Part shown: positions 32,619 to 55,500 of the stretch, one piece after another | How the letters are laid out: each line of letters starts with the position of its first letter | Position numbering within the stretch: position 1 is the stretch's first letter | NCBI GenBank assembly: GCA_010093605.1 | Contig: MU004182.1 | Coordinates: forward strand, 653,032-717,031 | DNA length: 64,000 nucleotides | Direction of reading: 5' to 3' | DNA from: Lophium mytilinum | Lineage: Eukaryota | Translations under genes and position numbers: made by a program | Notes under the pieces: generated by a model | What the model was told of the DNA's origin: nothing | Seen by the model: only the letters and a program-made list of their open reading frames with translations | The model's database searches: none

Positions 32619-33680
32619 TTACTCGACCCTTTTTCTGTATTCTTCCGCGTCTCTCCAAGGTTCGATCCACGTGCCATCAAGGACAGCTTGGGGTAAAGTG
32701 GTGTCTGTGAGAGAACATGCTTCAAGTTGGGGTAGTATCGCATCATCGAATAGAATAAAATGGTACCTAAATAGGCGTCTACAACCATATTTATTGCCAT
32801 TGCACTTCCAAAGTTCAGAGGCTCTCGGCCGCCGTTCTGGGACTGCGTCAAGGAGTGCTGCCATTGCAGGTAATATTGACAACCATCGCTTGGTATTGAA
32901 GAGGTGTATTATCCAAAGATAGACTTTGGGAAGATTTGCGGCATAAGCCCGTACACCGTCGGCGATTCGATATTCTTCAAATTCTGCTAGAGACTTCCCT
33001 GAAGCAACTGTCCACATCTCAAGAAATACACACCCGAGCGAAAACATGTCTGCAGCACGCCCTCGCCGCGCGTCTTCGATGTTAGCTTCTGGTGCGCAGT
33101 ACATAGGCGTCCTTTCGCTAGGAAAGCCGATAGATCCGGTTGTAGCGTCATTGATTAGATCCTTTGAAATGCCGAAGTCCGTGATAAATATTTGGTCGCC
33201 CTTGATAAGGATGTTGGCTGGCTTGAGATCCTTATGTCGAATTTTCTCGCCGTGAAGATAGTCGACGGCGCTGGTAAGGCAAAATATCCACTTGTGTAAG
33301 CGGCAACGGGCGTCCATTTGCGTATAGAATCCGGAATCAACGTCTGCTCGAGCAAGATATTCGCCGAGATCCATGTCAGCGACCGGACTCATGATGATTC
33401 CAAAATCAAGACCAGCTTGATATGTCCCGATCAGCCTGACGATGTGGTCATGCCGAAGTCTACGAGCGATCTTGATCTCAGACGTTATCTGTTTTTGCTG
33501 TGCAGCAGCACGAAAGTATCTCGTTCGTATAGTTTTCCTGGCATAGATCTGTGGATCAGACCCGATGGTCTCAACTTTGTCCACGAGCGCATAGCTCCCG
33601 CGGCCGAGATTATCCAAATGCTTGTAAGGCAGCTCAGCCTTGTTGGCGTAAACGGTATGCTTGTGTTCTCCGTCCGCCAT
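32619..33680 (-). CDS. Ser/Thr protein kinase (non-RD)
   Basis: Motifs LGRGSYALV, YARK, HKDLKPANIL, DFG, YCAPE and DMFSLG. Confidence 0.9.
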   Translation of the reverse strand: MADGEHKHTVYANKAELPYKHLDNLGRGSYALVDKVETIGSDPQIYARKTIRTRYFRAAAQQKQITSEIKIARRLRHDHIVRLIGTYQAGLDFGIIMSPVADMDLGEYLARADVDSGFYTQMDARCRLHKWIFCLTSAVDYLHGEKIRHKDLKPANILIKGDQIFITDFGISKDLINDATTGSIGFPSERTPMYCAPEANIEDARRGRAADMFSLGCVFLEMWTVASGKSLAEFEEYRIADGVRAYAANLPKVYLWIIHLFNTKRWLSILPAMAALLDAVPERRPRASELWKCNGNKYGCRRLFRYHFILFDDAILPQLEACSLTDTTLPQAVLDGTWIEPWRDAEEYRKRVE

Positions 33681-34185
33681 GATAGCAATCCAAGGGGTTC
33701 TTCATAGGCGAGAGGTCGATGGGTCAAGGTCTGGTAGTGCGTCGGACGGCAAAGAGAGCCTTCGAAGGAAGTACTGCTGTCCTTCAAATAAACTAGACGT
33801 CATCTCGTCAGTGAGGGACGTTCCTAGTTGTGGGCGTTGCGGCTCAACTCCCGCACATACCTAGCTTGCCTCGTTGAAGGCTGGCAACGAAGATCGTCTC
33901 ACGCGTATAGGGTTCTTGGTGTGAGCATGATAGAGAGAGAAGCAGAGGTGTCGAAGAAGCATTGAAAAAGAAAGGGCAAGGCTGAGGCTGAGGGCTGAAG
34001 CGAAGGCGGGGTGGTTTCCCACCAATTGTAGATATCCAGCCTTGTGTAACAATACACGACCGATCTGCGCCGACTCTTGAGGATCAGCTCTAATATTATC
34101 GCAAACTCTCTTGGTTTCGAATGCTTCTCATCTAATTCGTTCATACGTGTTTCGTATCCCAAGCCGCATGTCTCCTTCGCCCACA

Positions 34186-35430
34186 TCAATCCACGCCCTC
34201 ATCCACGTACTCATTCTCTTTCTGGTCCCCCTTCTCTTCTCCTTTTGTGCTGCCCGCTTTCGCGTCTTTGTGTACCTCCCCAAAGATCTCCTGTGCACTC
34301 TTCACCTTGCCATTCTCCGCCGGCAGAAGCTCGAAGACAATAACGAACAGCTCAGTACCAGTCGCGCGATCTTTAAGCACGTATCTGAGGGAGTGGGTGC
34401 TGCGTTAGAAGAGTTAGGCATGGGATGGGTCGCTAAAGGGAAGAAATAGTACGAATAAAACGAGAGACTCGAACGGAAAGTGGCAAGGAGCAAAAGAAAT
34501 CACAAACATACCGGAGAGGCTGGCCATCCCAGTGACTCACTATAGAGATAGCAGGGAGCCCATATCCAAGTTTTAGCGCGAACTCTGCCAACCATTAGCT
34601 TCTGCACTTTCTTCCAGGATATACCACCAGTTCATCTATACCATTGAAATCCAAATACGGATTGAAGAAATCACACGCATACGTCCTCCCCTCCTCAAAC
34701 TTAAATCCCGTCCGATTCGCCTCCTGCAACGCCCATTTCTGCCGCTGCCGCGCATCATTTGGCATCCCGGACTCTTTCCGTACCTCACGCCCATCCTCTT
34801 CTGCTCCCTCTTCAAACACGACCTCTTCCTCACCCTTCCCGTCTTTCGGCTTCGCTTTGTCGGCGTCTGCTTCTAGCTCCTTTCCATCCTCGCCTTTCCC
34901 GCCGACCCGGAAGATGTTTATGGAGCTGAGTAACGGGCCGTAGAGGTATGGCTCGTCTCCGAGTACGTCGCCATCGAGTCCTGGGTCTATCCAATACTTC
35001 ACAAGCCCTAGTGCCTTATCGAAGAGCGGTGGTAGGCGGTCGCGGATCGGGTGGTCGAAGTCATTGCCAAAGACGAGGTCCTGGCCGGTGATGTGGCGTT
35101 TCGGCGTGAAGGTGAAAGCTATGCTGTAGCGATCGTAGGTATGGAAGGGGTGGGAGAAGTAGGGAGAGTTGGATGGCGAGCTTTTAGGTAGTCCTGTATA
35201 GTATGAGCCTAATCTTCAAGTATATGGGTTGTTGAGGCGTTTGTTGGGATGAAAACGGAGGGGCGAATTTTACCTCTATAGTCCTTTATCCGGACATGTA
35301 TACGGGCGTCAATGTGTTCGGAGGATATGGAAATTGGCTTCGAGCTGTTGACATGTACATCCTCGTGCGTGGTGGGGTCGTAGGAATGCCCCGCTGTGAC
35401 TTTGAGGATGTAGTTTGAGTGATCGGCCAT
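34186..35430 (-). CDS. DUF1769-like conserved fungal protein, multi-exon
   Basis: MADHSNYILKVTAGHSYD..., LVFGNDFDHPIRDRLPP, IDPGL.GD...DEPYLYGP and DFFNPYLDFN. The last exon is the 34186-34380 frame. Confidence 0.8.
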
Positions 35431-38400
35431 GTTGGCGGCCGGGGGAGCGGTGTTGGCCTTGCTACGCTTCTTATGAGGGTCTATTCTAGCAGGAACTGGA
35501 AAATATTGATTCGAGAGCAATCGGAGGGTAATCGATTGAGACCGAGGCGGTTATGGTCGCAAACGATGAATGCACTATTTTTTGTGACGGCGGATGACGT
35601 CCTAAATGTCGCTAAAGCTTGGCATGCAAGTCATAAGCAACGATCACGTGATATGCTCGATATACTCAGACTCTCATCATAGCATGCGAATCCAAAATAG
35701 CAGTAATGTACTGTACTAGGGGAGGGGGGCAAGGCGAAGATCGCAGCATAAGTAGAAATTGTACCAGGCAGAAAGGCATTTTCCACCAGAGATGCCATGT
35801 GAATAGACGTCCACTCCTAATATCCCACAAGTCTAATTGCGACGCTTTAATATATTGAGACGCTATTAGTATTTAGATGTGGTAACAGAAGAGTGCAAAA
35901 TGGCGAAGAGGTAAAATGACCATAGTCTATTGATAATTTCATGACTTCCAGTTCATGGACTCCTACCGCTAGGGAGGCCAATGCCACTGCGGCACCTTGA
36001 CACGTCTGATGGACGAGCTTGAAACCAAGACAAGAAAGGTAGCCGCGCGGTAGCATAATCTAGAAAGTAACGCCTCGCGATACCATGCTTTTAGCAGATT
36101 CATCTTCGCCTTAATGCAGTACTAGACCACAAGTCCAAGCACACGGATCTATCACTGCTCTGCTTTGATGTTGCTCACTCGACACCACTGTAGGGGGCTG
36201 GCCCCTCTGCTGAGCTGCTGATTAGACAAGAGTCATTCTAATCTACACTGCTTGAAACTTGACATCGCCCTTAGATCTTCAAAATCCTGTGGCGGTACCC
36301 CAAGCAGTGGCAGAGTAGTGTGACTAGACTTATGGCCGGTCAATGTAATTGTTAGTTCGACAAGACATCCTCCGTTCTGGCCCCACCTTATCCACCTCGT
36401 GGTCTTCAAAGCTACGCCAGTTCACCGAACATATTAGGATGATGTAGATGAACTGGTGGAAGTTCTCCACTACTTACTCGAGATACATCACCCCTCTCTC
36501 TCTTGTACCTGAAACTTCTACGCTTGAAGTGTCTTTCTCCGACCAGTCGGACCTGGACGTAGAGAAGCCCTGAATTATAAGAATTGAAAGCCACAGTTCT
36601 GCAAAAGACCACGCTGAGCGCGCGACAACATGTCATAGACAGCACCCCTCTCCCTAATATTCCAAGAAAAAAAAATCTTGGCTAGGCGCTCGGTGGTGCG
36701 TGTAGCGCAGGAGTAGGACTCGGAGACCAAGACACGGTACTTGGATTTGGTGTGTGGTTGCTCTTGAGACCACGCCGACGTGCTGATGAGTTTTAAGTCG
36801 GAGCGGAACACTGCTGGATTAGTCAAGTTCCAGGAGATGCGGTGTCTAGCACTTGCTAAACACATCCACGAGAATTTCAGGCTTCCGCGAGCGCACATTT
36901 AGTACAACGACATTGACGACCTCGAGCAATGTAGAAGCGCTTGCTACTGCTATATGTGTTTTACAAAACTTCTAGGTCCAGTGTCGGAGGGTACAGTCGC
37001 AAAAGTTAAGCTATCATTCCTTCTAGGCTGGCCTTGAAAGAGGTCGCATCTCGTTACGAACCCGTTATGTGGTTATTCCCCTAAGCTGGGATCCCCCAGG
37101 CCCGGAAACCTTACAGTGGAGAAGAAGGGTATCCATTAATACGTAAAAGTTGAGTGTATTCCACGGAGTTCGTGTGAACAGCTCGAGGCTCGTTGGATCT
37201 TGCACGACGAGGAGCAGTTTACCATCCATTAGCTGACACTCGAAAGCGTTTTCAATGCGGGGAATTCCAAATCGACCTTCCAACTCCCCTCTTGACTCCA
37301 AAGAGCTTCTCCAATGTCGTTCTAGCTCGAGAATGAGTACAACTTTTCTGACGAGCCTCCGTGCTCGTTCACATCTCTGCTATAGTCAGCTAAACGATGT
37401 AACGAAGATGTGACCGCCTAGATGAAGGGGGTCGAGTATAATTGACGGGATGAAGGCAGGAGATTAGTCACACGACCCCCCTTCAGCACCAGGACCAGGC
37501 CCCACAAGCGGAAGCGATATTGCGGGACCCCCTCATGATCCACGCCGCCTTTGTGACGAGATTCTTAGCGCCATCTCAAGAACGGTGTGATGAGGCGCTC
37601 GGACAACCCCATCAATACATGCATGTTCCAGATCGCAGACTCCGCTAGGTCATGCGTGCATCCAGCACCTCTCAACACAGTCAGAGCGTTCCCTGGATCC
37701 AATTTCCTTGAGGCGTTTGCACGGCCGATAAAACAGAGTTACGCCGTGTGCTTTCCGTTGAAGATCCTTCACGATGCTATGACGGAAATGGAGATCAATA
37801 ATAGCCCCGTCCCAAAGAGGGCTGAGAGTCCCTGAGTCCAGTCGATCGGGCGGAAGCTAGCTGCTAGACGGCGGGGGGATGTACTGAAGGTTCCCGCGAT
37901 GGCGATGCGGATCGATCGCCGAAGATAGCGTGGATATTTTGAAGAGTCGGGTTGATGGATGACGAGCGATTTACATAAAAGGAGACTAGACGCGGGAGTG
38001 CTAAGAGCGATCCGATCGCCTCGTTTAGTAGCTGGAAAAGTCGGATGGACGGGCCGTGATGACTGGTGAGTATCTTAGAAGGAGGAGAATAAAGTTTGTT
38101 CAAGCAGACAATAGTACTAATGATTGTGGAGAGACTCAAGAAGATGGTGATATTGTGAACCATGGATGGGTTGTTTGATAGAGTTTCGATAACGCAGAAC
38201 CAGGGAAGACTAATATATGTTATGCAGCATCTAGTGCAGAATAACGGAATGGACGTGCGAAGTAGAAGACTGGAGATTATTGGAGAAACGGAAAAGAACA
38301 ATGCCAAGTGAGGAGCGTGGGATGTCGAGGCTTCTATACCCCGGGGAACCTTGTAGATTGACCGTATTGCGCCTTGTAATTATTGTTCTTGCCAGGATGT

Positions 38401-40852
38401 CTCGGTATTTTGTAAGGGTAGGCCACCAGCGTGCTCGTGTGCCGCTGAAAATGGAATAGATAGTAATCATAGGGAGAGATCGACATATAGATTTCGAGAG
38501 AACGGTGTAAGGATCTGCGAGCAAGTCGTCGCGATAGGGGGCACAATAGGTTCACGCTACCATTAGAGTTTGAGACATGTGCTGTGTGTGGTAGGGAGCT
38601 GAGCTGCTTACGACGTGCCTGACTACCGGATCCGTACGGCATGCGGACCGCCAGAACCACTGTTGGATGGCAACCGTGCTCAGTGAGTCGGGAGACGGCC
38701 GTCGAGCGCGAGTGGACGCGCAAGATCCTCGGATGAAAGCATAGCGGTGACAATTACTAGTGTAGAGTTAATGCAAACGTGCAGCAACGACACGACCCTG
38801 TGTCCTAGTGCCTGAAGACGACCTGCACAGTACGCATGAGAGAATTTACTCGTCAGATAGACGTCGGCAGCCTCTTCGGCCATGCCGCTATATGCCAACA
38901 CGGATGGAAGGTGGTCGATATCAATGACGGTGGTAAGGGAAGTCTGTACATTTACCAAAAGCAAACCGATGCATCTAGACGGCGCACAACGCAAGGAAGC
39001 GGGTAGCACGAGGCGCAGAGAACCGCCGGCATTGGCTCGCTCGGTCCAATAATGTGCTCGCCTTCAGATTGGCAATGCACGTCGCCCAGCGTCCGTTCTG
39101 ACTGAAAAAGTATCATTTGGCATCTGGAAAGCCGGCGCTGAAGGCAACGCTCGGGAAAGCGATAGCGCGCAACAGCCGCGACAGTTACCGCGAACCCGGC
39201 TCTTAACGACGTCGCAGAGCCCTTGTTCCTTGTGCCCCCAGAGCGCCGGCAGGGGGCAACACCATGGTCAAAGATCCAAGATGGCGGGCAGATGAGAGGG
39301 GAGGGCGGGGTTGCGGGCAGTCATCCCACGCCGAGATAGTTTCATGCACACGTGAAAGAGGTGACGTGGGGGTTCCGCTAGGGATGGGTAAATGCGGTTG
39401 TCGCATGCTTGCAAGATGATCTCCAGGGGATGCAGGTACCTGTCGAGTAAGGTCGACGCAAGACGACCAGGGCGTCGAGTAAGATGGCGATAAAGGTGTG
39501 GTCAGATACGAAGGCACCCGAGGTGTGTGTGAGACGCAATATGCGCGACGAAATGCGTGAACGGTTTCGATGCGGCCGACATGTTTCCTGACGGGAAAGA
39601 GACGGGGGCGCACTAATTCCGGTCAACGTCTTCCTCCAAGCGCTAGCTGTGCCGTGGCCAGGCACACTGGGGGCTATCGCGGAGCAGGTTTTCTGTGCCA
39701 CGTCGTTGAAGAGCGAGGCTAGCGGTGCAGGCATGCGCCGTGGGCATGATGGACTACGGATTCAATATCGACGGAGCCTTCACGATACGCGCTGACGTTG
39801 GAGTAGACCTTGCAGGGGTGAGGGGTCGGCCATGTCACGAGGGAATTAGCAAGAGACGGTGAGTGCAGCACTTCCACGTCACTGACGGATGATAATGCCG
39901 AAGAGGAGAATGGAGGGGCAGTCACAGAGAGTGGGGAGCGGTGGATGTGTAACGATGACAAAATACACTATTGATGTGGTAGTAGGCAGTATAGCGCAAT
40001 GCACCGCCATCTGAGAGGCAGCGTGGTATATATTCGTGACCAAAAATAGACAAATGGGTATTTCCATATCTCCCATATCCCATTAACTCCGGTGTAGCCC
40101 CATTCTGCAGGCAGGCCTATCCCTCGCGCCAGCTGATGCAATTACGAAAGAGGCAGTGCAAACACAAATCGCTGGTATATTACAAAACATGTGGGGATCC
40201 GAAAAGCTAAAGAAGGCCCCCAATACGGGCCAACGTATCCTTCCATCCGAACCGGCGGTGTCAAGGAGAGAAAGGCGGACGGGAGTTGAGTCAGAGCGAC
40301 GGTGGGCGAGGCAGCAGAACAAGAGGACGTGGTGATTGGCGGGCCAAGCATGAGGACCTTGTTGGAACAGGTCAGCAAGTGGGATGGCGATGTGCTGAGC
40401 ATGCGTAAGGCTACCATGCGAGGCATGATTGCTTTGCCGGAAAAAGGCGAACGTGGACGTGTGACACCTGCGGCATGGGTGTTGTGCAGCCAGCCAATGG
40501 GGCGAGTCCAGATCGATCGTGGTTCGCAAAGCAGCTGCATGCAGCAAGGCGCGGGAGGCATCTCAACCAGGGCTGGGTTGCGTCAGGCTCCCAGGATTCC
40601 TGAGACAGCTACGGATGCGGGCGGCCATTGATTTCAAGGTGTTGTGATTTCGGGGTTGATACCGGGGTGGAAAGGCGGAGAGATGCTCAGACTGAAACGC
40701 TGGGCGGTGTGATGATTGATCGAGTGACGGGGGAGGGAGACGGCCAGAATCCATGATGCAATAGGAGCCAGCTCGAGAGATAGGCCGAGACGGTATGTAA
40801 CGCCGAAGAGTGGATGGGGCGGTGAAGACGTTGTGGACTGAGGAGAGGCGGT

Positions 40853-40957
40853 CTATTTGGACGGGACTGGAGGAAGCGGCCTCGTGGGTGGCGGGCCTGG
40901 GCATGGAGGCAAGTTGGAGGTCGACATATTGCAATCCGTAAAGGTAAGTGCGGCCAT
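40853..40957 (-). CDS. Candidate 34-aa micropeptide MAALTFTDCNMSTSNLPPCPGPPPTRPLPPVPSK
   Basis: Read directly from the sequence (below the ORF-track cutoff). TATA-like element about 130 nt upstream, C/A-rich leader, tcaATGG start context and an RPLPPxP motif. Confidence 0.55.
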   Translation of the reverse strand: MAALTFTDCNMSTSNLPPCPGPPPTRPLPPVPSK

Positions 40958-43900
40958 TGAAGCTTGAGTGTAGTAGGACAGTGAAGTACTGAGGTAGCGC
41001 GGCGTGTGTGGTGGAGAGTGCAGCAGCGGATGAAACTGTTGTGGATTGTGGGTGTATGTGGTGCGTAGATGTAGTGGAAGGATGTATTATATTTAAGCTG
41101 CGGCACTGGTGTAGATCGTAGGCGTCCGAGAATGGTGATGAAACAGAGCGTGGATGGGGCGGCAGCGCGAGGTATTTATGCCAGGACTGCCAGGGACTTT
41201 TGCAATGTCAAATTCGGTCAGCCTACGCTGGCGGATGGTGTAATAAGCTGGCATGGCCATAGCGGTGAGCTGAGGCGTCGGGCGACGTGGAAAAGGAGAT
41301 GTCGCTGGGCAGGGATGCTTCGGTGAAAGGCTGCGCGCACAGCCAAGCTGCCCTCCCTGAACCGTGCATAAGCCAGAAACATCGCTCATCCCGGGCGTAA
41401 TGCCATGGCCAGCAAACACGGAGCCACGCCTGCCTCGTTTCAGGCGCCTCGTGACTGTGTGAAGATCATGATGATCCAAGCCCACCATGATGCCTGCCCA
41501 GCCATGATGCCCTGATGCCTGCGCGTCTGCCGCGGGCTGCCGATGGGTGTCTGCGTCGTTGCTAGGTTCCAGCACCTCGCCGTCGTGACATCACGGCCAT
41601 TTCGTTCGAAGCTAGACGGCCTGCTGGAATTTTGCAACCTTGTCGCCCGGTGCCACAGTGCAGAGTCCTGGGGCAGGGCGACGCGGCGCTGGCTGCCCGC
41701 AGCGCTCCACCAGTTCGGCCAGACTTGTCGGGATGCCCCTCTGCAGCTGTGCAGCAGCCTCGTGCCGCCTCAGGGCGAGCCACACTCGCGGCGTCTCTGC
41801 GGCGCCGAAACGGGCACGCTGTTGTCGATGGGCGGTCAGGAACAGGCAGGATCGGCCCCTTTTGGGGGTTGGTACAGTGCCCGTTCTTGGCCTGCACCAC
41901 CTGATCCACGAGTGTGGGAAGAGTGCCTCAGTTTGTTGATCCGTTAGAGAAGCAGTTCCAGTGTCGATGGCGTGAAGCGAAGCGGTGGATGTTGCAATAT
42001 CAGGAAGTGAACACCATGGCTTGGCCGGATCAGCGACCATTAGTAACCAGCTCTTTCTTGCATCCCCAACGACGAAACTGAGGTCTCCTTCTTTGCCACG
42101 CTCTCGCTACCATATCCTCTCTTGCTGCTCTCCCGAGGTCCTCTCCTCTGCTTAAGCGAGCCGCACATTCACTTTCACCCTGGCTGCCAAGCGTGCAGTT
42201 TACCACCCCCCTATCCAGAGCTCCTGTCTCAGGTGGGCATCCATCCAATCACCCCGGAGACGCCACGGCCCCGCTCCAGCCGGCATTGGGGGAATTGTGC
42301 GTTTTCATCAGCCAAGCCGTTGCGCGCCTAGGCTCCACCGCAGCGAGGTGGGCAACGATCTGGGGCTGCGACGGCGTCTTCTGCCGCTCTTCTCCCGGCC
42401 TTCCATTCCATCTCCCAGGGGGAGATTGCTCTTTGGGCCACCGCCCTTTCTCCTGCGCCGGCCTGCATGACTCTGCCAAATTGAAGGCAGTCCTCGGAGC
42501 GTGGCCAGGGCGCGTTTGTGCAGAGCCTGACTCTGGGGCGAAAGAAAACTTCAGATGTGGCCTCGTCGCCTTGTGGCCTGCTCGTATTTCCAACTTGTGC
42601 GCCCCGCACAAGCAGGCTTCACACACGAGGGCCATCCCTGCGCCGCACCCAATGAGGTTGCCAGAGTGACGGATTGGGACGCAGATGCGATTGCTGCTGG
42701 CCGGCGAGCCTGAAAGATGCCGGGCAGCTCCCCACACAGCGTCAGGCGATGATGACGACGTGACTCTGTATTTCCTTTTGGCGACGGGCGCGGAAATGAC
42801 CTGCTGTGGCAATGGAAGCTGCGGCACAGAATTTTGTATGTTTCCAGCGACATCGGCGCGATGTGCGAAGATCCGGCGGGTGCAAACCCGTCACACAGCT
42901 AGACATGATGGCCGCCGGCAAGCCATAGAATGCAAGGAAGCCGAGTGGTCGCCCTGGAGAGCGGCAGGGCCCAGGGAGGATGGAAAAGACGAGCACGCGC
43001 GCGAGGCGCTGCCAAAAGGAGGCGTCCGGGCAGCAGGTCCACCACACGTGGAGGCCGGGATGTGGCACGCCACGATGAAACACTGCACGCCCCGGTGTGA
43101 CGGCAGCAGCTTCGGGGGCGTTCAAACACGAGCCTGCGGTGCTTTTTGAATCGACGCGCAAATCGCCCTCTCCGTCGGCCCAGATGCACGCCTCGCGCGC
43201 CTTTCACGCCCTGTCACTGCTGTTGCCGAACCGAGGGCAGCAGCACCAGACCACGGCTGCGTCACCTCCCGGATCAGCACCAGCCACTGGAAATCTCTTC
43301 ATGACGCTTTGCCACGTGAGACATGGCTGGTACCTGATCGCCAGGGGTGCCGAAGCTTGATCTCAAACAGTGGCCCCGGCGAATCAGCTCAACAGATCGG
43401 ACGCTTCGTCCTCAGGACTCAACAATTCCGTCGACGTCGTACAGCTGGTCACGCTCTCGCGGCCGTGTTCCAGCGGCCCGGCCGACTGGAGCCTCGAGTG
43501 TCGGAGTGAGGTCCAGCGGAGCTTCTCGCCAGTCAGGCCATCCGAACACCACACTCGGCATCCCGCGTTCGGCCTGCAAGTCATCCTGGCACCGGCAGCC
43601 CTCCGCGTCGACCTGCCCCCTTGCTGCGCCCAATCGATATTCTCCAGCTGCTCTCTGCCCTCGTGGCATGCTGCAAGGCGGGGATGCCGTGCCGTGTATG
43701 CAGACACCAGAACCTCAGCTGGCCCGATTGCTGCTGAAGGCTAGATCTGCCGTGCCCGTCCAGCTGCTCTAGCCTTTGCAAAAGCACCGCGCGCTGCTGC
43801 AGGTACGCGCACCCTGTACTGCGTTCCACGGCGTCTTGTGCATGTTGAGCAGCTCCACTCCTCTCCACCAGACTTCCGTGGCTGGCGCGTGCTACTCGGC

Positions 43901-44548
43901 CTAATCGTTCGTTACCAGTCTGGAGGGCCGCCACAATACCGACCCCAGCACCGTGCAAATTGATGCATTGTCGTCAAATCGGCTGCTTGGTCCGACCTTG
44001 CCTGACAGGGCCTTGGCGCAGACTGCCGACGTCTGAAAGTGTTGCCATGTTCCGCCTTGTGAGATGTCTGGGTTTCAGAGCCACACCGCTGCGCTGTTGC
44101 GGACATGCAACCGCACATGCTCCATTGGGGGAATTACTATCATGGCATGAGGTGAGTTCTGTGGCACGGTGGATCACCCTCTTCCTTCAATTCATGCTCG
44201 TTGGAGCGTCATTCACCGCAACCTCGGCGGCTATCGTGTCATTCAAAATTTCGTATAGTGCCAGCATGACCACCTCCTTCACAGAACCGCCTGTGCACTC
44301 CTTTGCATCTCTCCATCTCTGCGCCGGGCGCTCCTCCAGGATCTCGCCGATCATTGATGCCGGACTGTGCGGCCACGTGGGCTTACAGAGCACGGTCAGC
44401 AAGGCGCCCGCCCGGTCTGCCAGGGTGAGGGTGTTGGAAACCCCCTTGCTTGGAAAGCTATTTTCTGCATCATCTCAGGGACCAGCTAGCGACATCGTTC
44501 CCGCAGGGCTCATGGAAGCGACGCTGTCAATACGACCACCACGCTACC

Positions 44549-45702
44549 TCACCCATCTTCATCCCCGTCGTCGCCCTGTTCGGCCGCAGCCTGCGTCGAC
44601 ACCCAATTCTCCATCATCTGCTGACTTGAGCCAGCCATATCACCGCTTCCGCTCTTCGCCTGCGTGCCGCCCTTGCGCTTCACCACCAGACAGAGGATGC
44701 GGCCGTAGATGCTGAAACCGTCGTAGGAGGTTTTCAACCCCAGCTTCTTTTTGTCGTCGGTATCTCCACCCTCGGTAGCATCGTCAGCGGCCATATCCCG
44801 CTCCTTCTGCCTGCTCTTCTTCACGCGTTTCGTTGGCGGACGCTCGTCCTCCTGAAACGCTTCGTCTGAGTCACTCGACTCAACCACAGTCATTCCACTC
44901 TGCTGCCGCCTGCGCTTACTCTGCCTTACGACATCTCCGGTACCGATCGAGCGTTCGCCAGCCTGGTCGCCGTCGCTAGCTTCGGGAATATCGCTCAAGG
45001 CAACCTCGTCGTCTTCTGCCCTGATTACTATCCCAGCATCGCCGTCGTCCTCTCTGATCACAATCGGCGTGTCATCCCCCGCGGGAACCGTCAAAATCTC
45101 CCCCCGCGTGTCTGTCGTAAGCCAGCCCGTCAGCTTCCTGGAGTTACTCTCGATACCGGGTTTCTCCTTGAAGTTCTTCTGCTTGGTAAGGAGCGAATGC
45201 CGTGCGGATAGCTCGGTTAGGAAGATCGATACATCGAAGTCATCTGCATGTCGCGTCTTAAATTAGCTCCTACTACATGGAACAGGCAGTTGTGCTGTGC
45301 AAATGTGACCCGCATACACCGGAGTTCTATATGCGTTATACGAGCATGATCCCTCATCTCTTGATCTGACTTAATGCAACACACTGCCTCCATAAACACG
45401 ATTGCGATAATATAGTAATAATAGAATAAACCAAGCAGACCATATTGGAATAAGCTGGACGTACCGCAAACAACCACATCTTTGACACCCTTCTTCTTTC
45501 CCTTGCCTCTGCCCTTTGCGCGCTCGTTCTCCTCGCGCAGTTTGGGCAGCACGAGGGGTCGCACCGCTTCGATGACGCGTGGGAGCGCAGGAGCGGCGCG
45601 GTTGAGGAGCCAGGTGTCGGCGTCTGAGGGCCGGTCGACGTAGATGCGAACTTCGAGGACCGAGTGCTTGGTTATACGGAGGTAGCGGCGGATGGGCGCC
45701 AT
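44549..45702 (-). CDS. Conserved fungal hypothetical protein (acidic central region)
   Basis: Exon 1 MAPIRRYLRITKHSVLEVRIY...LVLPKLREE, an intron of about 220 nt, then exon 2 ending YDGFSIYGRILCLVVKR...MENWVSTQ. Confidence 0.75.
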
Positions 45703-45980
45703 GGGAGTTGTATGTGTGGGGTGGAGAGGGAGCTCAACCTTGGACGTGATGGTTCTAAAATAGAGTGTCGTGCCAAGATATCGGCCCTCTTTTGACATCT
45801 GAAGAACTTTGGGGCGACAACTTCACACCGCGTCAACCATTACCGCTCAAACGCTGGCGAACAAACCTGCCCGACTTTGAAGAGCTCTTGTGTCTCGGAT
45901 GCAATTTCGAATGCACCAGGACCGCGTGGCAAATTCGCAACCCCCCGCGTAATTGCGCTTCCCCGACGAAAGTCCTTCCT

Positions 45981-47593
45981 ATGGTGTTTGAGCTCCATGT
46001 ATGGGGGCCGGCATTCGGATTACCTTCAATAGACGCAGAATGCAATGCCGCGATCGCATTTCTGAATCTCGCTGTTGCGCGATCACAATGGGTGCTGATT
46101 GTTGCTCACGACACATCACCGAGTCCAACCCGTATGTCTACCAACATTCTCGAACATTGCGTCCTTGGGGCTTGGTCATTGTGGAGGAGCCAACGGATAC
46201 ACTGAGACTAATTGGACGTATCAGATAATTTCCCTGCTCTCCGCGATGGTTCGACGTGTATAGGCGGATTTAATCAAATAGTTCAGTACCTCAGCCAGCA
46301 CCCCTCGGGACCACATAATCTGGATTCGAACCTCACCAGCAATCAAAAGGCCGACACGTTAGCGTATGTAGGGTTCTATAAGACCTTCATGAAGGGCAGA
46401 AGGCTGACAAAGTGCGTTTTAGCTTTTCTACATTCATCGAAACCACCGGCCGACCGCTCCTCGACCTCTCTTTATACACATCCTCACAAAATTACTCTAC
46501 CACAACCGCACCCGCATACACCGCTTTACTACCATGGAATTTGAACTACACAATACCACCTAGACACCGAGATGCTGCTAGAGCTCGGACAGCTCACCTG
46601 GGACTCTCTGGACTCGACGTGGACTCGGACCTTGGGACAAGTCTAGGCGGGGAGTTTGAGGCAGCGAAGAAAGCATCAGGCCTTCCATCGGACAGTCACG
46701 CAAATCGCCCAAGCATTCTGAATCTTGGTCGACAAACAGGCCTTCAGGGCCTGCTGAGCTCTCCGGTCTACGCAGCCCGGTTTAAGCTAGATGCGCTTGC
46801 CAATGAGTTCCTTACGCCTCTTTCAGACCTGCTCGGCAGGAAACAATACCTACTCGGAGGCGATGCGCCCTCCACATTAGACTCTTTAGCATTTGGGTAC
46901 TTGGCGTTGATGCTGTACCCCCCGGTCCCACAGACATGGCTAAAGGAAGCCATTGAAGCACGCTATCTGCGGCTGGAGAAGTACATCAGGCGCATGCGCA
47001 CGGCTCTACTAGGCAACGACGAGGACGTGAGCCCGTCCAAAGTGTTTGCCCTGGCTTCATGGCCCAGATATGATGCTGCGCTAGAACACGCTCGCCAGGG
47101 GCTTGGCCTGGCGTTGCCCTGGGCACCACCAAGAACAACATCGCTTGCTGCAACCGCATTCACAGTCGCGAGAGATATAGTCGGCAGCTTTCCCGCGGTA
47201 TCGACATTAATACGCGGCGACCCCGTCCGCAGGGACAGGCAATCCGAAGATATAGCTACAATACCGACGTCGGCACTGCCATCTCCGTTCATTGTAAACA
47301 CGTTCTTTGCGTTCTCTGGCGCCCTCCTCTCAGCTATCGCCGGCATGGCCGTCCATCACGCACGATCACCTCGTCAAGGGGATTTAGTGTTTGAGCTGCC
47401 CCGGAGGCGGCCCCAACAAACATTTGCGCAAGCGGGCGACTTTCTCGGGGTCTTGACTGACCAAATAAGGGCCGAGAGAGACTGGAATGAGCGGTGGCAG
47501 CGAGAAGGGAGCGGCGGGGATGGAGGACTCGGTGCTGAAGAGGCTATGGGCGTCGTTGACGAGGTCGTAGTGGAAGGCGTTGGTGAAAGATAG
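45981..47593 (+). CDS. SAM37: Metaxin-like SAM complex subunit (Sam37/Tom37)
   Basis: MVFELHVWGPAFGLPSIDAEC, a GST-like C-terminal region (YLLGGDAPSTLDSLAFGYL) and a C-terminal hydrophobic anchor. Two introns. Confidence 0.85.
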
Positions 47594-48186
47594 GGTGGCC
47601 ACCGGCGTGTAGTAGTACAGAGCTGTACCATAGATCCAGATACCCATTTGTTTGGATATGACACAATGTATCGTGACAATTCCTTCCTGACCTCACTAGC
47701 CACAGACGTCGGGAGCTAGCGCTTGACACGAAATGCACTTGCATCTGATTGCAGTGTAGCCACAGCAACAGAAACACCACCTACGTCGTTGTGTACCTGT
47801 CTATAGGCCTCCAGCCACTTTTTGTAGCCCAATGCGACAGAATTTCAGTCGCCCAAGGGCTAGTTTAATTGGCGCCAGGCCCATACTGCGCAAGATCGGC
47901 CTCGACGGCATGACGATGCGCTTCGGGGTCCAGGCCTAGACACGGAACGAGGCGCATGGGCGTGTTCCCCCCCACAACTGCCACCTGCTGTTACTTGGCC
48001 GTGCTCACTATGGCGACGTCATGCCGGCCTGGCGTCACTGGGCGCAAACAAAACGACGACCATCCCTCCAGCCAAGCGGGCGCATCTTTACCACAACACA
48101 CACGCACGAAACTCCTTCTTTGTCTCCCAAATCCACTCCACTTCCTCAACACCTATTCACGTCCACGCCCTCGTCCACCCGCCACC

Positions 48187-49586
48187 ATGCACAGGACATA
48201 CTCGATGCGCCAGTCGCGCGCCCCGACCGCCTCGCAGATTCAGAGCCCGCCGCCGCCTGCGTCCTCGACGAAGCATGGCAGGTTCTTCGGCAGGGGCAAT
48301 ATCGGTATGTTTCTCTCATGATACTCGAGTCTGCAATGCGATCAGGGTGTCTGCTGCTCGAATGTCCGGCGCTCCCGGGCCAGGCCGTCTCCGGCGGAAC
48401 GACTCCGCCTGCTTCGACGCGACACCTCGAGTCCATTTGCGCATCATACGATCCATTACCTCATTTCTCTGCGTCTGATCAATGCTAATTGGTATGCTGT
48501 GCTACAGGCCACACTTTCCGCGGAAAGGCTGCTGGCGCCTTTGGCCCCGACCTCGCCAAGAAGCTCTCACAATTGGTGAAGATGGAGAAGAACGTCATGC
48601 GCAGCATGGAGCTCGTGAGCCGGGAGCGCATGGAGGTTGCAGTAAGCTGATACTCGCGCCAACTTGGAATTATTGATTCTGACTATTACAGCAACAACTC
48701 TCAATCTGGGGCGAGGCATGTGACGATGACGTCTCAGATGTCACCGACAAGCTCGGTGTGCTCATTTACGAGATTGGTGAGCTGGAAGACCAGTTTGTCG
48801 ACCGCTACGACCAGTACCGTGTGACGATCAAGAGCATCCGCAACATTGAGGCTTCAGTCCAGCCTAGCCGCGACAGTACGTCATGCACACCCATAATTCA
48901 GCGGAATCATCATTGACTTCAGAACAGGGAAACAGAAGATCACCGACAACATTGCGCAGCTCAAGTACAAGGAGCCGAACTCCCCCAAGATCGTTGTCCT
49001 CGAGCAGGAGCTCGTCCGCGCTGAGGCCGAGTCGCTCGTCGCCGAGGCTCAGCTCTCCAACATCACCCGCGAGAAGCTCAAGGCTGCCTTCACCTACCAG
49101 TTCGATGCTCTCAGCGAGCACTGCGAGAAGCTTGCCATCATTGCTGGCTACGGAAAGCACCTCCTTGAGTTGGTTGACGATACCCCGGTTACGCCTGGCG
49201 AGACAAGGCAGGCGTACGATGGATATGAGGCTAGCAAGGCGTAAGTTTACCCCAAGAAATACCTTTACTTTTACTCACAAATCCCCAGTATCATCCAAGA
49301 CTGCGAAGATGCCTTGACCAACTGGGTCTCCCAGAACGCCGCCGTCAGCAGCAAGCTCTCTGTCCGTTCCCGCACTCTGTCCCAGCGCCGTGCCGCCCGT
49401 CGCCAGCCCGGTGAGGGCGTCGACCTCTCCCACCAGGACCAGTCTCTCGGTGACAGGGAGTCTGGCCTCTGGATCCCCGCCTCCGAGCACCGTGGCAACG
49501 GCTACGAAGAAGACGAGGAGGAGGATGCGCCGTCCACAGTCGGCACTGAGACAAGAGGCCGCGAGGAGGAGCGAATCGCCGCATAA
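48187..49586 (+). CDS. PIL1: Eisosome BAR-domain protein Pil1/Lsp1
   Basis: MHRTYSMRQSRAPTASQ, FGPDLAKKLSQLVKMEKN, DDVSDVTDKLGVL and LEQELVRAEAESLVAEAQLSNITR. Multiple introns. Confidence 0.95.
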
Positions 49587-50262
49587 TTGCAGCCTAGTAT
49601 GATTGGTTAATGGGAAGAGTGCCCGGTCCACACTGTATACCCCGGTGGGTGCGGGCGCCGGATCTTTTTCATTGGAGGATTTGGGGATTCTCTGCAGAAC
49701 GGTTTTCGTGGTAATGGTGTTACGATGAGACGGCAGGGCGAAGAGTTTTTCCTTTTGGAAAATTATCGAGTGCTTCTCTGCATGTAGTCAGAATAGTAAT
49801 GACTTGTCCGAACTGATATGATCCTTGCTTTTTGAGTGCTTCCTACATGCAGTGAATGTGCATGTAGATCGATCTCTGGCGGTGAGTTTATGCGCTTGTG
49901 ACCAGATCCAACCCCTCTCCCGCATCGCCGACCCACCTACCTGCAGCATCTCCGCCAGGCGTTTACCAATCTATGTCAATTGGACCCTACCGTTTGCAAA
50001 CAAGCACTCACATACTCCATGGACCCAACTAGTTCGGGCAAGGTACACCCGATCAAGCGGAATGATCTGCAGTTCGCGCCCTTGGGCACTCCGAGATGCA
50101 CTCCGAGCTCGGCTTTCGCAATAAGGCGCCCTGATGAGTCTTTTCCTTTTGCCGCCGTCCGTCGGGATATAACCCGATGAACGTTGTCGTCTCCACTCCG
50201 ATGTGTGAAGTTCTGTACTTCACACCACATAAGAGCTAGGAAACCGAACACTGCAGAATAGG

Positions 50263-52084
50263 ATGCGAGACGATACCGAGACATCCCCACTGCTGAGGCG
50301 GGGTTCCAGCACACCATCGCCCTCAGCCTCGAGCTCGAGCAAGTCGTCAACTTCAAGTCCAAGTACAGCTTCAGATCCGGATACCGGAAAGAGGAAATCA
50401 ACAGGAGAATGGTTATCGTCGAAGTTACCCGCCTTCACCACCATCGCCCCGCGCTACCGCTTCGTCCCCGTCCTGGGCTGCGCCCTCATTTTCATCAATG
50501 AGGCCGAGTACTTCATCAAGCAGGTCGCCTCTATGCGCGCGCTGGAGGCGATGCATTGCTACAACTACTATCTCGAGCGCGACTCCCCCCTCGTCGAGCT
50601 CGGCAAGCATATCCCCGAGCGGTTGTGTAAGATCGATACGGTGCAGAAGCAGCTGGCGCGCAGCGCGGGGCTGATTATGTTTGTGCGCATGCTGAGTGCG
50701 ATGGTGGGGGCGATTCCGTTGGGGTGGTTGGCGGATCGGGGAGGGAGGAAGTTGGTGATTGTGTTGCATAAGGTTAATGTGACGGTGGCGTGTGGGTTGT
50801 GGTTGTGTCTTTGTGGGTTTATTTCTTTTTCGTGCTTTGCTTCGCTTGTTCATGGTCATATTGGCCGATATCTTGATTCTTTGCTCTTCTCAAAAGATTA
50901 TGGGGTTGAATCCTTGTGTCCCTTGATATATACGGGATTGCTGACTTCTGATACCAGATCTTGGCTTCCCGAAAGTCCCCGTCTGGACGCTCTACCTCAG
51001 CGGGCTGCCCGGCCTTATCGGGGGTAACTACGATATTGGGTTGGCGATGCTGTTTGCATCCTACTCAGACGTGATGCCAGTGGCTACAGAGCGAGCGTCG
51101 CTGTTCTTCCTGACAACGAGCATGCAGTACCTCGCCCAAACCTTCTGCCCCTCCATCGGCGCGTTCCTGATGAATCTGGACGGGAAAGGGGGAACTCCGC
51201 AGGTCAATCTCGCCGTCAGCTTCGCCCTCTCCATTCTAACCGTCCTCGTCGCCATCTTTCTCTTCCCAGAAACAGTAGGCGAAAGCAGAACACACGCCGC
51301 CTCCCTCTCCCAACAACCCACCCCACAAGAACCCTCACCCGCACCCTCATCCCCCTCGCCATCCCCTTCAACCATCGCCCCTGAAGACCCCAAACCCCCA
51401 CCCCCCTCCACCCCCATCTTCGGCCTCGGCCTCCCCAACCTCCTCCTCCTCTTCACCAGCATCCTCCTCGCCTCCACGGGCATCAAATCCATCGACTTCT
51501 TCGGCCTGGTCCAATACCCCGTCATCAAATTCGCCTGGACCTTCCCGCAAGCCTCCTACATCGTCACCATGCAAGGCTTCCTCATGCTCCTCCACTTCTC
51601 CCTCCTCCTGCCCCTCCTCAACACCCTCGCCGCCCGCGCGCTGCACTCCGCCGCCGCCGCCCACTTCGCCATCATGCTCGCCTCGGCTGCGATCCTCGCC
51701 CTCGGCGCCCTCGTCATCGGCGCCTCCAACTCCGGCGCCGTGTTTGTGGGGGGCGTTGTCGTGTATTTGTTCGGCGAGGGCTTGCCGACGGCGACGCAGG
51801 CGTATATTGTGAGTCTGGTGGAGAAGGGGAGGGTGGCGCGGGTGATGGCGACGTTGAGTCTCGCGAGTATTGGGGGGAAGTTGGTGGCGAGTATTGCGTT
51901 TCCGGAGGTGTTGGCGGCCGGGTTGGATAGTGGGAGGAGGGGGTTGGTGGGGTTGCCGTTTTTTGTGGCGGCGGGGTTGTTTGCGGTGGCGGCGGGGTGT
52001 GTGGGGACGGTGGGGGTGAGGGTTGGGGTGGGGAGGGGGAGGGGGAAGGGGAAGGAGGTGGAGGTGGAGGTGGAGGAGGTGTGA
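50263..52084 (+). CDS. MFS transporter (SLC46/tetracycline-exporter-like)
   Basis: Motif A GWLADRGGRK and many hydrophobic helices across two exons (50263 to about 50813, and about 50958 to 52084). Confidence 0.85.
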
Positions 52085-52547: not shown

Positions 52548-55500
52548 TCAAGGGGCCGCCGCCTCCTTATCTTCCTCCACTGCGTCTTCACACCTCAGAC
52601 ACAGCTCTTCCAGCTTGGGCGCCACAAAACGCCAGCACCTCGGACACTTATGCTCGAGCGGCGGCAGCACCACCACCTTTACCATCGGCCCCTCTTCTCC
52701 CAACTCAAACACTTCCTCGTACCTCCACGCCGGTTCCACTTCCCCGATCGCCTCTTTCACACCCGCCTCTCCCACCACACTGACCCCCGACACAACAAAC
52801 ACATCCGCCAAATCCTCATCTCTCAGCTCCAGCTTCTCAAACTCTTCTTCCACTTTCCCCTCCGGCAGAACCAGCACAACCCTACACTCCAGCCCACTCC
52901 CAATCTTCTTCTCCCCCCTCGCCTTCTCCTGCACGCCCTTGATAGCCGCATGCACCGCCCCAATCACCATCATCTGCCCCTCCAACCTCCGCTCCTCCCC
53001 GGCCTCAAGCTCCCACTCAAACGGCTCCCACACGATCCTCGCCGGATGCTCCTCCTCGCTCCGCATTCGCTCCGGCACGTGCTCCCACACCTCCTCCACC
53101 AACATCGGACACACCGGCGCGAGGATCTGGCAAAGTTCATGAAACAGCAAACCAAGCACATGCTGCGCGCACGCCCTCTCCTCAACACCCCCCGCATAAA
53201 TCCGGTCCTTCAGCGTCTCGAAGTAGAACGCCGACAAGTCATGCGCGATATACTTATTCAGCGCCACCACGCCTCTCGAGAACTCGTACTTCGCGAAGTG
53301 CGCGTGGATCTCTTTGCTCGTCTGCGCGAGGCGGTGGAGCGCGATCTCGTCGGCGAGGGCGAGGGGCGCGTCGGCGAGCCCTTCGTGGAGGTCCGCGAAG
53401 CAGGTTGGGGAGAACCCTGGGATGGGGAGGGCGAGGACGCCGAGGAGCCATTTGAAGGTGACGCGGTATTTGTGCAGCGCGAGGTTGACGCCGAGGAGCA
53501 CGGGCTGGCCGATGACGACGTCTTTGGTGTAGTCGCTGCTCGCGGCCCAGAGGCGGAGGGCGTCGGGGCCCATGGCGTCGTAGGTGGGGTTGGGGGAGGG
53601 GGTGGAGGCGTTGGTGGGCTTACCCTTGTTTTTCCGGGGTTTCATGGGAGGGAGGAGGGAGCCGGACATTATCTCGTCGGGGGAGATGACGTTGCCGAGG
53701 CTTTTGCTCATTTTGCGGCCGTCTTGGTCGAGGGTGAAGCCGTGGGTTATTAGGGTTCGGAAGGGGGGGAGGATTGTGCGTTGCGAGGACTGCGGTTGAT
53801 GGGCGATTCCTTCGGCGACTTCCTGGGGGGTGGTTTGGTGGGCGACGTGGGTGAGGAGCGAGGATTGGAACCAGCCGCGGTGTTGGTCAGTTCCTTCAAA
53901 ATACACATCGGCAACTGGGCCATCATTACGTTGTGATAGAAGAGTCCAGCTGGTGCCGCTGTCGAACCAGACGTCCATAGTGTCCTTGCCTCGAGTATAT
54001 GTCCCCGACAGAGACTCGGGTATCCAAGCAGGGTCGTCCTCGGGATCAGTCCACCAGGCATCGATTCCACGTTGCTCAATTACTTTTGTGATGTGATCAA
54101 TAGTAAGACCATCCATCACAGCTTCGGACTTTTCAGTATCCGTCCTATACAGTGCAGGAATTGGAACACCCCAAGACCGCTGCCGTGAAATACACCACTG
54201 GCTCCGGCCCTGGACGAAACTTTCGAGTCGAGTTCTGCCGACAGCAGGAATGAACGTAACGTCTTCTAATGCCTGCATGGCTCCTGATTTTATACCGTCG
54301 ACATTGGCAAACCATTGCTCTGTTGCTCGGATGATAACAGGTTGCTTCGTTCGCCAATCGATGGGGTATTTGTGCTTGATAGCGTGTGTGTGCAATACAA
54401 AGTCTTTCTCTTCCGCTGTTAGGTATTCCATGACCGCATTGGTACCCTCTTTCTGGACAGATAGACCCTGGAGAAGCTCTGGTTGATCTGGGAATGCAGC
54501 ACTAGTAAAATTACCATTATCATCCACTGGAGCAAAGGCCTGGATCCCAAGCTGACTACACACATTGTAGTCGTCCATGCCATGTCCCGGAGCCATATGC
54601 ACTAGGCCAGAGCCAGAGCTATCAGAGACGAAGTCGGCGTGAATGATAGGCTGAGGCTGTGAGCTGGATCCTTGGAGAGGGTTCCTATAGAACATGTTGC
54701 CCGCGATTTGTGACCCCCGAATACCGCTGGAAACTATCTCTAGCTCCACTCCCAGAACAGATTCGAGATAGCTCACGCGAGAGGTAGCTACTATAAACCG
54801 CCTTGACGAGTTCGGTCCTCGGACAACCGAGTAATCCAACCCATTATGCACCGCAATCGCTTTATTCGCCGGGAGCGTCCACGGGGTAGTCGTCCAAATC
54901 ACCGCATCCACCTCCTGCCACTGTACATCCGGAAACGCCGCCTGAAGCTCATCCGAAGCTTCCACGGGGAACCGTATAAAAGCCGCCGTGGACTCATGAT
55001 TCTCATCATACTCCAGCTCCGCCTCAGCGAGCGCTGTTCCCGACGACGGCGACCAATACACCGGCTTAAATTGCCTATGCACCAACCCTTCACATCCGTC
55101 AGCAACCCCCTCATGAAAACACATCAGCCGCACAAACCTCACCCTTCACAACCATCTCCCTAAACACCCCCAACTGTCTCATTTCAAACGCCTTATCCAT
55201 CGTCTTATACGCATTCCCCCAATCTCCCATCACACCCCACGCCCTAAACCCCGCCATCTGTTCCTTGACAGTCCGCTCCGCCAACGCCCTCGCCGCCTTC
55301 CGCACTCTCACGGGACTCATCCCCGCCCCGGGATCTTTCGCGGCTTGCAAAGCTTTCAGCTCGATCGGCAGCCCGTGGCAGTCCCAGCCCGGCACGTAGC
55401 TCACGCGCTTGCCCTGCCCGACCTCGAAGCGGCAGATGAGGTCTTTTGTGATTTTGTTCAGCGCATGGCCGATATGCAGGGGGCCGTTGGCGTATGGGGG

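Follow-up and report, generated by a model that had tools for sequence, protein, structure and literature searches.

The Locus and Its Transcript

A short open reading frame (ORF) of 34 codons lies on the minus strand of a 64,000-nucleotide (nt) stretch of Lophium mytilinum DNA (contig MU004182.1, positions 653,032 to 717,031), and very probably encodes a conserved microprotein. The whole stretch is called the window here, and positions are counted from its first letter. The ORF is located between a Duc1-domain gene at 34598-35550(-) and a Tom37/SAM37 gene at 46212-47590(+), which is followed by a Pil1 gene; these assignments were made with Pfam. The features of the locus are collected in Table 1. 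An earlier reading of the letters (the original prediction) had described the site accurately, with TTAAATATAATA at 41096-41085(-), an ATG-free leader, and the start context tcaATGGcc of the frame 40957-40853(-), which opens MAALTFTDCNMSTSNLPPCPGPPPTRPLPPVPSK and ends in the stop TAG.

Table 1. Features of the microprotein locus in window coordinates
Feature	Positions	Strand	Evidence or remark
Upstream block, TTGGATCA..GATCTTCACACAGTCACGAGG..TGAAACG	41436..41482	(-)	conserved in relatives
TATA-like element, CATAAATAC	41172..41180	(-)	51-59 nt upstream of the 5' end
TGTTTCATCAC, contains the reverse complement of TGAAACA	41135..41145	(-)	between the TATA-like element and the 5' end
Probable RNA 5' end	41121..41121	(-)	RNA contig end running into adapter; strand presumed
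5' leader, 164 nt, ATG-free, G-poor, C-rich	40958..41121	(-)	sequence and leaders of relatives
34-codon ORF with TAG stop, first ATG of the RNA, MAALTFTDCNMSTSNLPPCPGPPPTRPLPPVPSK	40853..40957	(-)	sequence
24-codon family-wide part with stop, from the second Met, MSTSNLPPCPGPPPTRPLPPVPSK	40853..40927	(-)	database ORF P0001 23/24 identical with the same stop; 43 distinct peptides
Core PPCPGPPPTRPLPPVP, contains the class I SH3-type RPLPPVP	40862..40909	(-)	DNA pattern match at 40863-40903
3' untranslated part, ~880 nt	39975..40852	(-)	depth bins (3' end probably near 39975); alignment limited to L015 and L074, the closest relatives

Judged alone, the 34-codon ORF is no more than chance would give. 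The window contains 458 ATG-initiated ORFs of at least 30 residues and 401 of at least 34, and all three minus-strand frames are open over 40700-41175. The ORF exceeds chance because it is conserved in relatives, not because of its length or its motif. The 77-residue stop-to-stop frame that encloses it has no Pfam family at E ≤ 1, and nothing was matched in Pfam by 103 and a further 41 ORFs around the site. Rfam gave 0 matches in 34000-47000, no tRNA was found nearby, and the repeat scan of the region returned nothing relevant.

The contigs of the only public sequencing run found to contain this DNA (X1), whose RNA origin was initially a guess, were compared with positions 33000-52000 of the window. 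Fifteen intron-like joints appear in these 19 kilobases (kb); those of the minus-strand Duc1 gene have CT..AC ends, and those of Tom37 and Pil1, on the plus strand, have GT..AG. X1 is RNA-derived, because 14 of the 15 joints carry these canonical intron ends. The stretch 39974-41121 is spanned by X1 contigs without a joint, as unspliced RNA. The mean depths of the bins are 3608 (39974-40607) and 2930 (40608-41241), with 38.6 in the preceding bin. Mean word depth is ~3,600 at the microprotein RNA versus ~400-1,900 over the neighbouring genes; contig depth is a poor measure of expression that cannot rank genes, and these values hint that the RNA is not rare. Cover is very low at 41242-43143 and 35536-36803, and neither stretch was used as evidence.

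The covering contig ends at 41121 straight in sequencing adapter. This position is taken as the RNA 5' end because a like loose end occurs at 48097, on the 5' side of the plus-strand Pil1 gene. The transcript is inferred to be an unspliced minus-strand RNA of ~1.15 kb, from 41121 to ~39975; the contigs themselves carry no strand. The minus strand from 41125 to 40957 contains no ATG, and the 200 nt before the start codon consist of 26% A, 40% C, 10% G, and 23% T. The first ATG of the putative RNA is that of the 34-codon ORF.

Other readings of the same RNA were tried. The downstream ORF of 139 residues was rejected as a coding sequence, since an exhaustive search gave 0 relatives among 1.84 billion representatives. 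An overlapping frame of 214 residues, which contains the 113-residue ORF of the RNA, gave 287 candidates, none of them a relative at E ≤ 0.01. Both the 113-residue and the 139-residue ORFs look like translations of C-rich DNA. A plus-strand reading (ORFs of 93 and 48 residues, and a 19-residue ORF ending in CTAI at 39955-40014) was also rejected; it has no family, its ATG lies beyond the high-depth cover, and it is the opposite strand that carries the conserved ORF. Telomerase RNA and other structured RNAs were dropped because Rfam gave no match, metallothionein because the 34-residue peptide has only two Cys, and ribosomal micro-proteins because there is no basic micro-ORF.

Relatives in Other Genomes

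The core was written as a degenerate DNA pattern for C-P-G-P-P-P-[TS]-x-P-x-P-P-x-P, in which the first two letters of 14 codons are fixed. This pattern matches the window once and none of 100 shuffles. It was found in at least 80 metagenome contigs, and the locus counts given below refer to those listed for the pattern (L001-L080). The same pattern has 0 matches in 596 gigabases of prokaryote genomes. Two of the loci, L003 and L012, are cut by contig ends, which leaves 78 that could be evaluated. An in-frame ATG 3-20 codons upstream with no stop between, together with a stop 0-3 codons after the block, is present in 76 of the 78. This layout was not imposed by the search pattern; when 9,467 control positions free of stops were taken from these loci, only 2.3% showed it.

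The core sits in an ORF of 22-34 codons in 76 of the 78 loci, and 43 distinct peptides were obtained, including that of the window, with lengths of either 22-27 or 33-34 residues. The shorter form is found in most lineages, with MPAASFPPCPGPPPTRPLPPLPK and MPGIKYPPCPGPPPTKPLPPIPKK as examples. The 33-34-residue form is that of the lineage of the window, where an extra in-frame Met is found ten codons upstream; it is represented by 19 distinct sequences, such as MAATIYDESNMASQNLPPCPGPPPTRPLPPVPSK. The consensus of the family core is [LFYI]PPCPGPPP[TS][RK]PLPP[VLI]P. The G+C content of the loci ranges from 0.43 to 0.59, and a fungal Zn-cluster regulator adjoins locus L035. A low-G+C subgroup (L063 and L071, 0.43-0.46) has a different, basic 34-residue form, MST[KN]RI..RTSS..QLPPCPGPPPTRPLPPLPK, whose ORF is preceded within 200 nt by 5-6 ATGs; the leaders of the other subgroups are ATG-free.

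The family was also sought among known proteins. In a collection of 5.8 billion protein clusters, searched over 30-135 residues (forms below 30 residues and fused forms above 135 fall outside that range), no relative was found at 30-41 residues. At 42-135 residues the query with the 77-residue frame matched only P0001, a 103-residue ORF of a Logan assembly. The last 24 residues of P0001 are identical to the window at 23 positions and have the same end, and the preceding 53 residues are essentially unalike. This is as expected for a short coding sequence behind a fast-evolving leader, and P0001 is an artefactually over-extended ORF. The ESM Atlas gave no usable match and the sequence search of the PDB gave 0. 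The strings PPCPGPPP, PGPPPTRPLPP, RPLPPVPSK, and CPGPPPTRP were not found in 8.4 million papers and preprints, from which supplementary tables were excluded, and topical literature searches returned nothing on such a fungal peptide. The peptide family is described here as not found in databases and literature, rather than as unknown.

Constraint on the Encoded Peptide

Of 79 cores, 59 are distinct DNA versions of the 16-codon core, and these encode 6 peptide versions. All four bases appear at each third codon position of the core. The Arg codons are AGR in 26 instances and CGN in 33, and Leu is encoded by CTN or TTR. Several positions were free to vary under the search. All 59 versions have Pro at both codons that precede the pattern and Leu at the first free NTN codon. 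At the free MRN codon, where Q, H, N, or S would also have matched, 54 versions have Arg and 5 have Lys, and the second free NTN codon is Val in 36, Leu in 15, and Ile in 8.

The proportions of synonymous (pS) and non-synonymous (pN) differences were obtained for the 19 sequences of the 33/34-residue form. The 19 codons outside the pattern give values of 0.50 for pS and 0.20 for pN, and thus a pN/pS of 0.40. The pattern codons of the same sequences give a pN/pS of 0.014; the pattern fixed 14 codons, and the invariance there (including the Cys, the Gly, and most of the Pro residues) is therefore partly ascertainment.

The similarity is confined to the ORF. Among 13 sequences with full flanks, majority-base identity is 0.82-0.89 in the ORF, 0.30-0.64 upstream, and 0.40 in the first 15 nt past the stop. 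When 5.5 kb of the window was compared with all loci by blastn, most of the loci were aligned only from 40959 or 40927 to 40851. The core is identical at 14-16 of 16 positions, and larger proteins of the same loci are much less alike: the class I tRNA synthetase found in synteny in L004 and L010 shares just 58% identity with that of the window, and the window gene 44552-45262(-) shares 46% with its L078 counterpart, which likewise lies upstream and has the same orientation. Synonymous changes greatly outnumber non-synonymous ones and the frame, start, and stop are kept, as purifying selection on a protein-coding gene requires.

An ORF that arose by chance in a non-coding RNA or untranslated region, with a DNA or RNA element as the conserved entity, would be compatible with the C-rich stretch, the three open frames, the lack of a Pfam family, and the lack of any likeness in the Atlas or the PDB. 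This explanation is extremely improbable, given synonymous sites that are saturated around a fixed peptide, Arg and Leu codons that differ in their first letters, a start and stop retained far above the control rate, and similarity that is bounded by the ORF.

The ORF is, very probably, a conserved protein-coding microprotein gene, real, translated, and selected as a peptide, as judged from its pattern of substitution. Strong support for the original prediction, a real microprotein that length cutoffs had missed, comes from the saturated synonymous sites and from the start and stop at 76 of 78 loci. The prediction is further supported by the position of the ORF as the first in the RNA covered by contigs, and by the lack of any database relative of 30-135 residues except the extended P0001. 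A conserved ORF in relatives and a transcript were both seen, in the family loci and in the X1 contigs. The microproteins of animals and plants that are encoded by small ORFs are likewise coding, fall below annotation length cutoffs, and were recognized by conservation and RNA. The fungal peptide is shorter than most of these (22-34 residues), is little more than one docking motif, and forms neither a folded domain nor a membrane helix.

A selected peptide could also act in cis, as a regulatory nascent chain whose proline runs stall ribosomes and control its own RNA or translation downstream. The ORF is 5'-proximal with ~880 nt of RNA behind it, and PPP and PGP runs, whose translation depends on eIF5A, are present. 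A class I tRNA synthetase is located ~0.9 kb downstream on the same strand in L001, L004, L010, and L014. In the window the synthetase is 12 kb off, on the other side, and high-depth contig cover ends near 39975. No conserved downstream ORF was detected: the 139-residue ORF has no relatives, similarity ends at the stop, the window ORFs at 36000-40800 match nothing in the loci, and tblastn and blastn gave no downstream matches except untranslated blocks in the closest relatives. The strict conservation of R/K, L, and V/L/I is not needed for polyproline stalling, and a nascent-chain function is considered improbable. The arginine attenuator peptide, the conserved fungal upstream-ORF peptide of arg-2/CPA1, likewise has ~24 residues, amino-acid conservation across fungi, and a place at the 5' end of its transcript. 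The microprotein is unrelated to it in sequence, is not followed by a conserved main ORF, and has the leader and Kozak context of a main ORF.

Start Context and Promoter

The start contexts of the relatives are CACAATGC, CACAATGG, CTCACAATGC, AACACAATGG, and similar strings, and the start of the family ORF has a strong Kozak context. The window ORF carries T at -3 of its first ATG (GCTTCAATGG) and A at -3 of its second, so the 24-residue form may be the main product there; both the 34-residue and the 24-residue products are plausible. Of 53 non-redundant loci, 46 have an ATG-free stretch of 200 nt ahead of the start, versus 13.0 expected from shuffles. The leaders of the relatives are mostly G-poor, typically with ~10-14% G.

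The original prediction had taken TTAAATATAATA as the TATA box. That assignment is probably wrong, as this string falls 25-36 nt downstream of the probable 5' end at 41121, inside the transcript, and relatives do not have it at the corresponding position. The TATA-like element that is conserved is instead CATAAATAC. The string TGTTTCATCAC begins 35 nt after it; TGTTTCATC is present in 7 of 49 loci, and GTTTCA is found 33-41 nt after the TATA-like element in ~10 relatives from the clade of the window. Ten loci match the block at 41436-41482 with 83-89% identity over 44-49 nt, and in 4 more (L015, L070, L073, and L074) it is contained in longer alignments of 71-74% identity. A 17-nt tandem repeat at 41480-41511 overlaps this conserved block. 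The block probably holds one or more transcription-factor sites, including a Ste12-type word that resembles a pheromone response element.

The 42 upstream regions (-900 to -100) contain 27 copies of the word TGAAACA, counted on either strand, versus 3.1 ± 1.7 in shuffles, and 45 downstream regions contain 4. The shorter word TGAAAC appears 57 times in the upstream regions versus 13.3 ± 3.6 in shuffles; the loci are related, and the counts for both words therefore overstate independence. TGAAACA is described as the Ste12 response element and as bound by Ste12 of a filamentous ascomycete (PMC10789715). The Ste12-type words suggest control by a mitogen-activated protein (MAP) kinase pathway of the Fus3/Kss1 type.

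The tiny 5' ORF, the ~1 kb RNA, the long 3' untranslated region, and the enrichment of TGAAACA would also suit a secreted or exported signal of the kind made from fungal lipopeptide pheromone precursors. The genes for a-factor-like precursors (Neurospora mfa-1 and relatives) have a ~24-codon 5' ORF, an RNA of ~1 kb, a long 3' untranslated region, and Ste12-type words. The microprotein differs from them in its unrelated, proline-rich and basic rather than hydrophobic sequence. A C-terminal CaaX is found in 0 of the 43 peptides, all of which end in basic or polar residues, and in no small minus-strand ORF of 39900-41125. There is no hydrophobic stretch like that of a signal peptide and there are no repeated processing sites, which makes a pheromone-like role very improbable. 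The peptide is about half proline, has a basic C-terminus, and lacks a hydrophobic segment and a CaaX end, a make-up incompatible with a folded domain, with a membrane helix, and with the precursor of a lipopeptide pheromone.

Candidate SH3 Ligand

Class I SH3 ligands have the consensus [RK]xxPxxP, or in its stricter form +x-hydrophobic-P-x-hydrophobic-P. The RPLPPVP of the window fits this consensus and on sequence belongs to the class. The original prediction had pointed to this match, and it is borne out by the free positions of the family, which are constrained to R/K, L, and V/L/I.

The closest resemblance among known ligands is to yeast Pbs2. Its motif VNKPLPPLPVAG (Saccharomyces cerevisiae; PDB 2VKN) shares [KR]-P-L-P-P-[LVI]-P with the microprotein and binds the SH3 domain of Sho1 as a class I ligand in which Lys, Leu, and Pro are important (PMC4904012). 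In L035 and L054 the variant is TKPLPPLP, which agrees with KPLPPLP at 7 of 7 positions. The microprotein thus has the motif of a Sho1-SH3 ligand of the Pbs2 type, as a resemblance only. In Pbs2 the motif is found inside a large MAP kinase kinase; here the motif and PPCPGPPP are nearly the whole product, and binding to Sho1 is only a candidate function. The PbsB protein of Aspergillus nidulans is reported in a review to be without the motif needed for Sho1 binding (PMC3153207), which would mean that in such fungi the conserved SH3 domain of Sho1 lacks the ligand that it has in yeast. No SH3 domain was found in the window or in 236 locus ORFs of at least 130 residues.

The same peptide might instead bind another proline-recognition module (WW, EVH1/WH1, GYF, or profilin), or act through its single Cys, by a redox disulphide dimer, lipidation, or metal binding. 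The [LFYI]PPCPGPPP half is superfluous for a minimal SH3 site, and the Pro-Pro that precedes the Cys is kept in 59 of 59 versions. Variants that end in PPLPK contain PPLP, a motif of the WW group II type, and [FLY]PPxP resembles the EVH1 type. The free positions are, however, those that a class I SH3 ligand predicts, with R/K only, L, and V/L/I only, and no PPxY or PPG[hydrophobic] motif is present. The Cys was fixed by the search pattern, so its invariance is not independent evidence for a role. Another module or a Cys function is regarded as unlikely, if less so than action in cis.

In the favoured explanation, a conserved microprotein gene whose product would be a free SH3 ligand, the RNA would start 51-59 nt past the conserved TATA-like element, and the first ATG after the G-poor 164-nt leader would open the 34-codon ORF. 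The proline-rich peptide would be unable to fold and would form an extended polyproline helix. Its [RK]-P-L-P-P-[VLI]-P would be bound in the class I mode by an SH3 domain that belongs to a signalling or cortical protein, and the PPCPGPPP half would add specificity or a second contact. Such a free and plentiful ligand would compete with SH3-mediated contacts or bridge them. A Sho1-type SH3 domain would be the most specific candidate receptor, and the Ste12-type TGAAACA words of the promoter would bring the gene under a Fus3/Kss1-type MAP kinase pathway.

Several points weigh against this explanation. Strings of the form [RK]xxPxxP are common by chance and are carried by 33 of the 458 window ORFs of at least 30 residues. 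The independent evidence for selection is limited to the free positions and the ORF layout, and the loci are interrelated, so that locus counts are not counts of independent events. Two loci do not fit: the motif of L002 is found within a frame of 331 residues, and the frame of L077 extends to 91-100 residues. The base at -3 of the first ATG of the window ORF is T. The strand and both ends of the RNA derive from one contig end, depth bins, and gene orientation. A simple SH3 site does not account for the conserved [LFYI]PPCPGPPP half; this half may sharpen specificity, serve to bind another domain, or hold a modified Cys.

With these points included, the probability of the favoured explanation as a whole is put at roughly 0.55. 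That the peptide acts through an SH3 domain is an even bet on the sequence as it stands. A free SH3 ligand, decoy, or bridge is ranked first among the possible functions, at equal odds of being right or wrong, and Sho1 is the most specific candidate partner that we can infer. A fuller scheme is distinctly speculative: in it, an unannotated gene of the Pezizomycotina under Ste12/MAP kinase control would encode a peptide that occupies the SH3 domain of Sho1, a membrane sensor, or of a polarity scaffold such as Bem1, in place of the Pbs2 motif that is reported to be missing there, and would thereby set the gain of, or feed back on, the MAP kinase pathway of invasive growth and cell fusion.

The two exceptional loci were inspected separately. 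In L077 (L077:1017-1334:-), LPPCPGPPPTRPLPPIP is followed by ~70 more codons, and in L002 (L002:1258-2250:+) a looser CPGPPPSSPLPPLP is found inside the 331-residue frame. Neither has a Pfam family.

Surrounding Genes and Sequence

The original prediction placed the ORF in a gene-poor region and took the long flanks for regulatory DNA and untranslated sequence. The first statement holds insofar as no Pfam domain is found between ~35,600 and ~46,200 of the window. It does not hold for a conserved spliced gene at 43174-45800(-) or for a spliced transcript from 36867 to ~39000(-). The second is correct for the ~880-nt 3' untranslated region and the promoter block; other transcribed units are present in the flanks as well.

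The gene at 43174-45800(-) is transcribed, has an intron at 45244-45464, and contains no Pfam domain. Relatives of its exons 44552-45262 and 45220-45822 were found in L078 (46%), L068, and L010, and one RNA contig bridges this gene to the divergent Tom37 gene. The transcript from 36867 to ~39000(-) is seen in lower-depth RNA contigs with introns at 38557-38611 and 38757-38949. It has no long ORF, no Pfam match, and no counterpart in the related loci, and it may be a non-coding RNA or a spliced read-through from the microprotein gene. A block of 84 nt at 42371-42454 is 82% identical to L015 and L074, where it is located ~1.1 kb upstream of the micro-ORFs; it is either conserved non-coding DNA or a small unrecognized gene. 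The one joint with non-canonical ends, at 49777-49829, has CT..GC ends and would be a minus-strand GC-AG intron; the other joints of its contig are plus-strand GT..AG.

The remainder of the window has the ordinary content of a filamentous fungus, including P450s, a Fungal_trans regulator, a glutathione synthase, and an FKBP. The segment 500-16300 contains an FAD-binding oxidoreductase, three P450 genes or fragments, an FAA hydrolase, a LigB-type dioxygenase, the N-terminus of an epoxide hydrolase, and Fungal_trans, a combination typical of an aromatic-catabolism or secondary-metabolism cluster. The class I tRNA synthetase of the window, at 52551-55890(-), is of the I/L/M/V type with an N-terminal extension. 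The presence of such a synthetase on the same strand downstream of the micro-ORF in four distant loci is a loose synteny at 58% identity. Pfam domains were found in only 8 of 62 non-redundant loci when the 236 ORFs of at least 130 residues within 2.5 kb of the micro-ORF were searched; the microprotein gene is therefore usually located in a wide domain-free stretch, as it is in the window.

Implications

ORFs as short as this one are dropped by fungal annotation, and this one was kept where housekeeping enzymes have drifted to 58% identity. The microprotein gene has its own promoter and its own RNA, and the codon-level pattern search by which its relatives were recovered reaches microprotein families that are beyond protein databases. 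The gene is small and easily deleted, and the peptide is easily synthesized. If the product is a free SH3 ligand, it would represent a new regulation of modular signalling, by a gene that encodes solely a short linear motif. It would also be a candidate ligand of the conserved Sho1 SH3 domain in filamentous fungi, whose Pbs2 reportedly has no such motif. The microprotein may be relevant to surface sensing, cell fusion, and pathogenic development, processes that depend on the Ste12 pathway.

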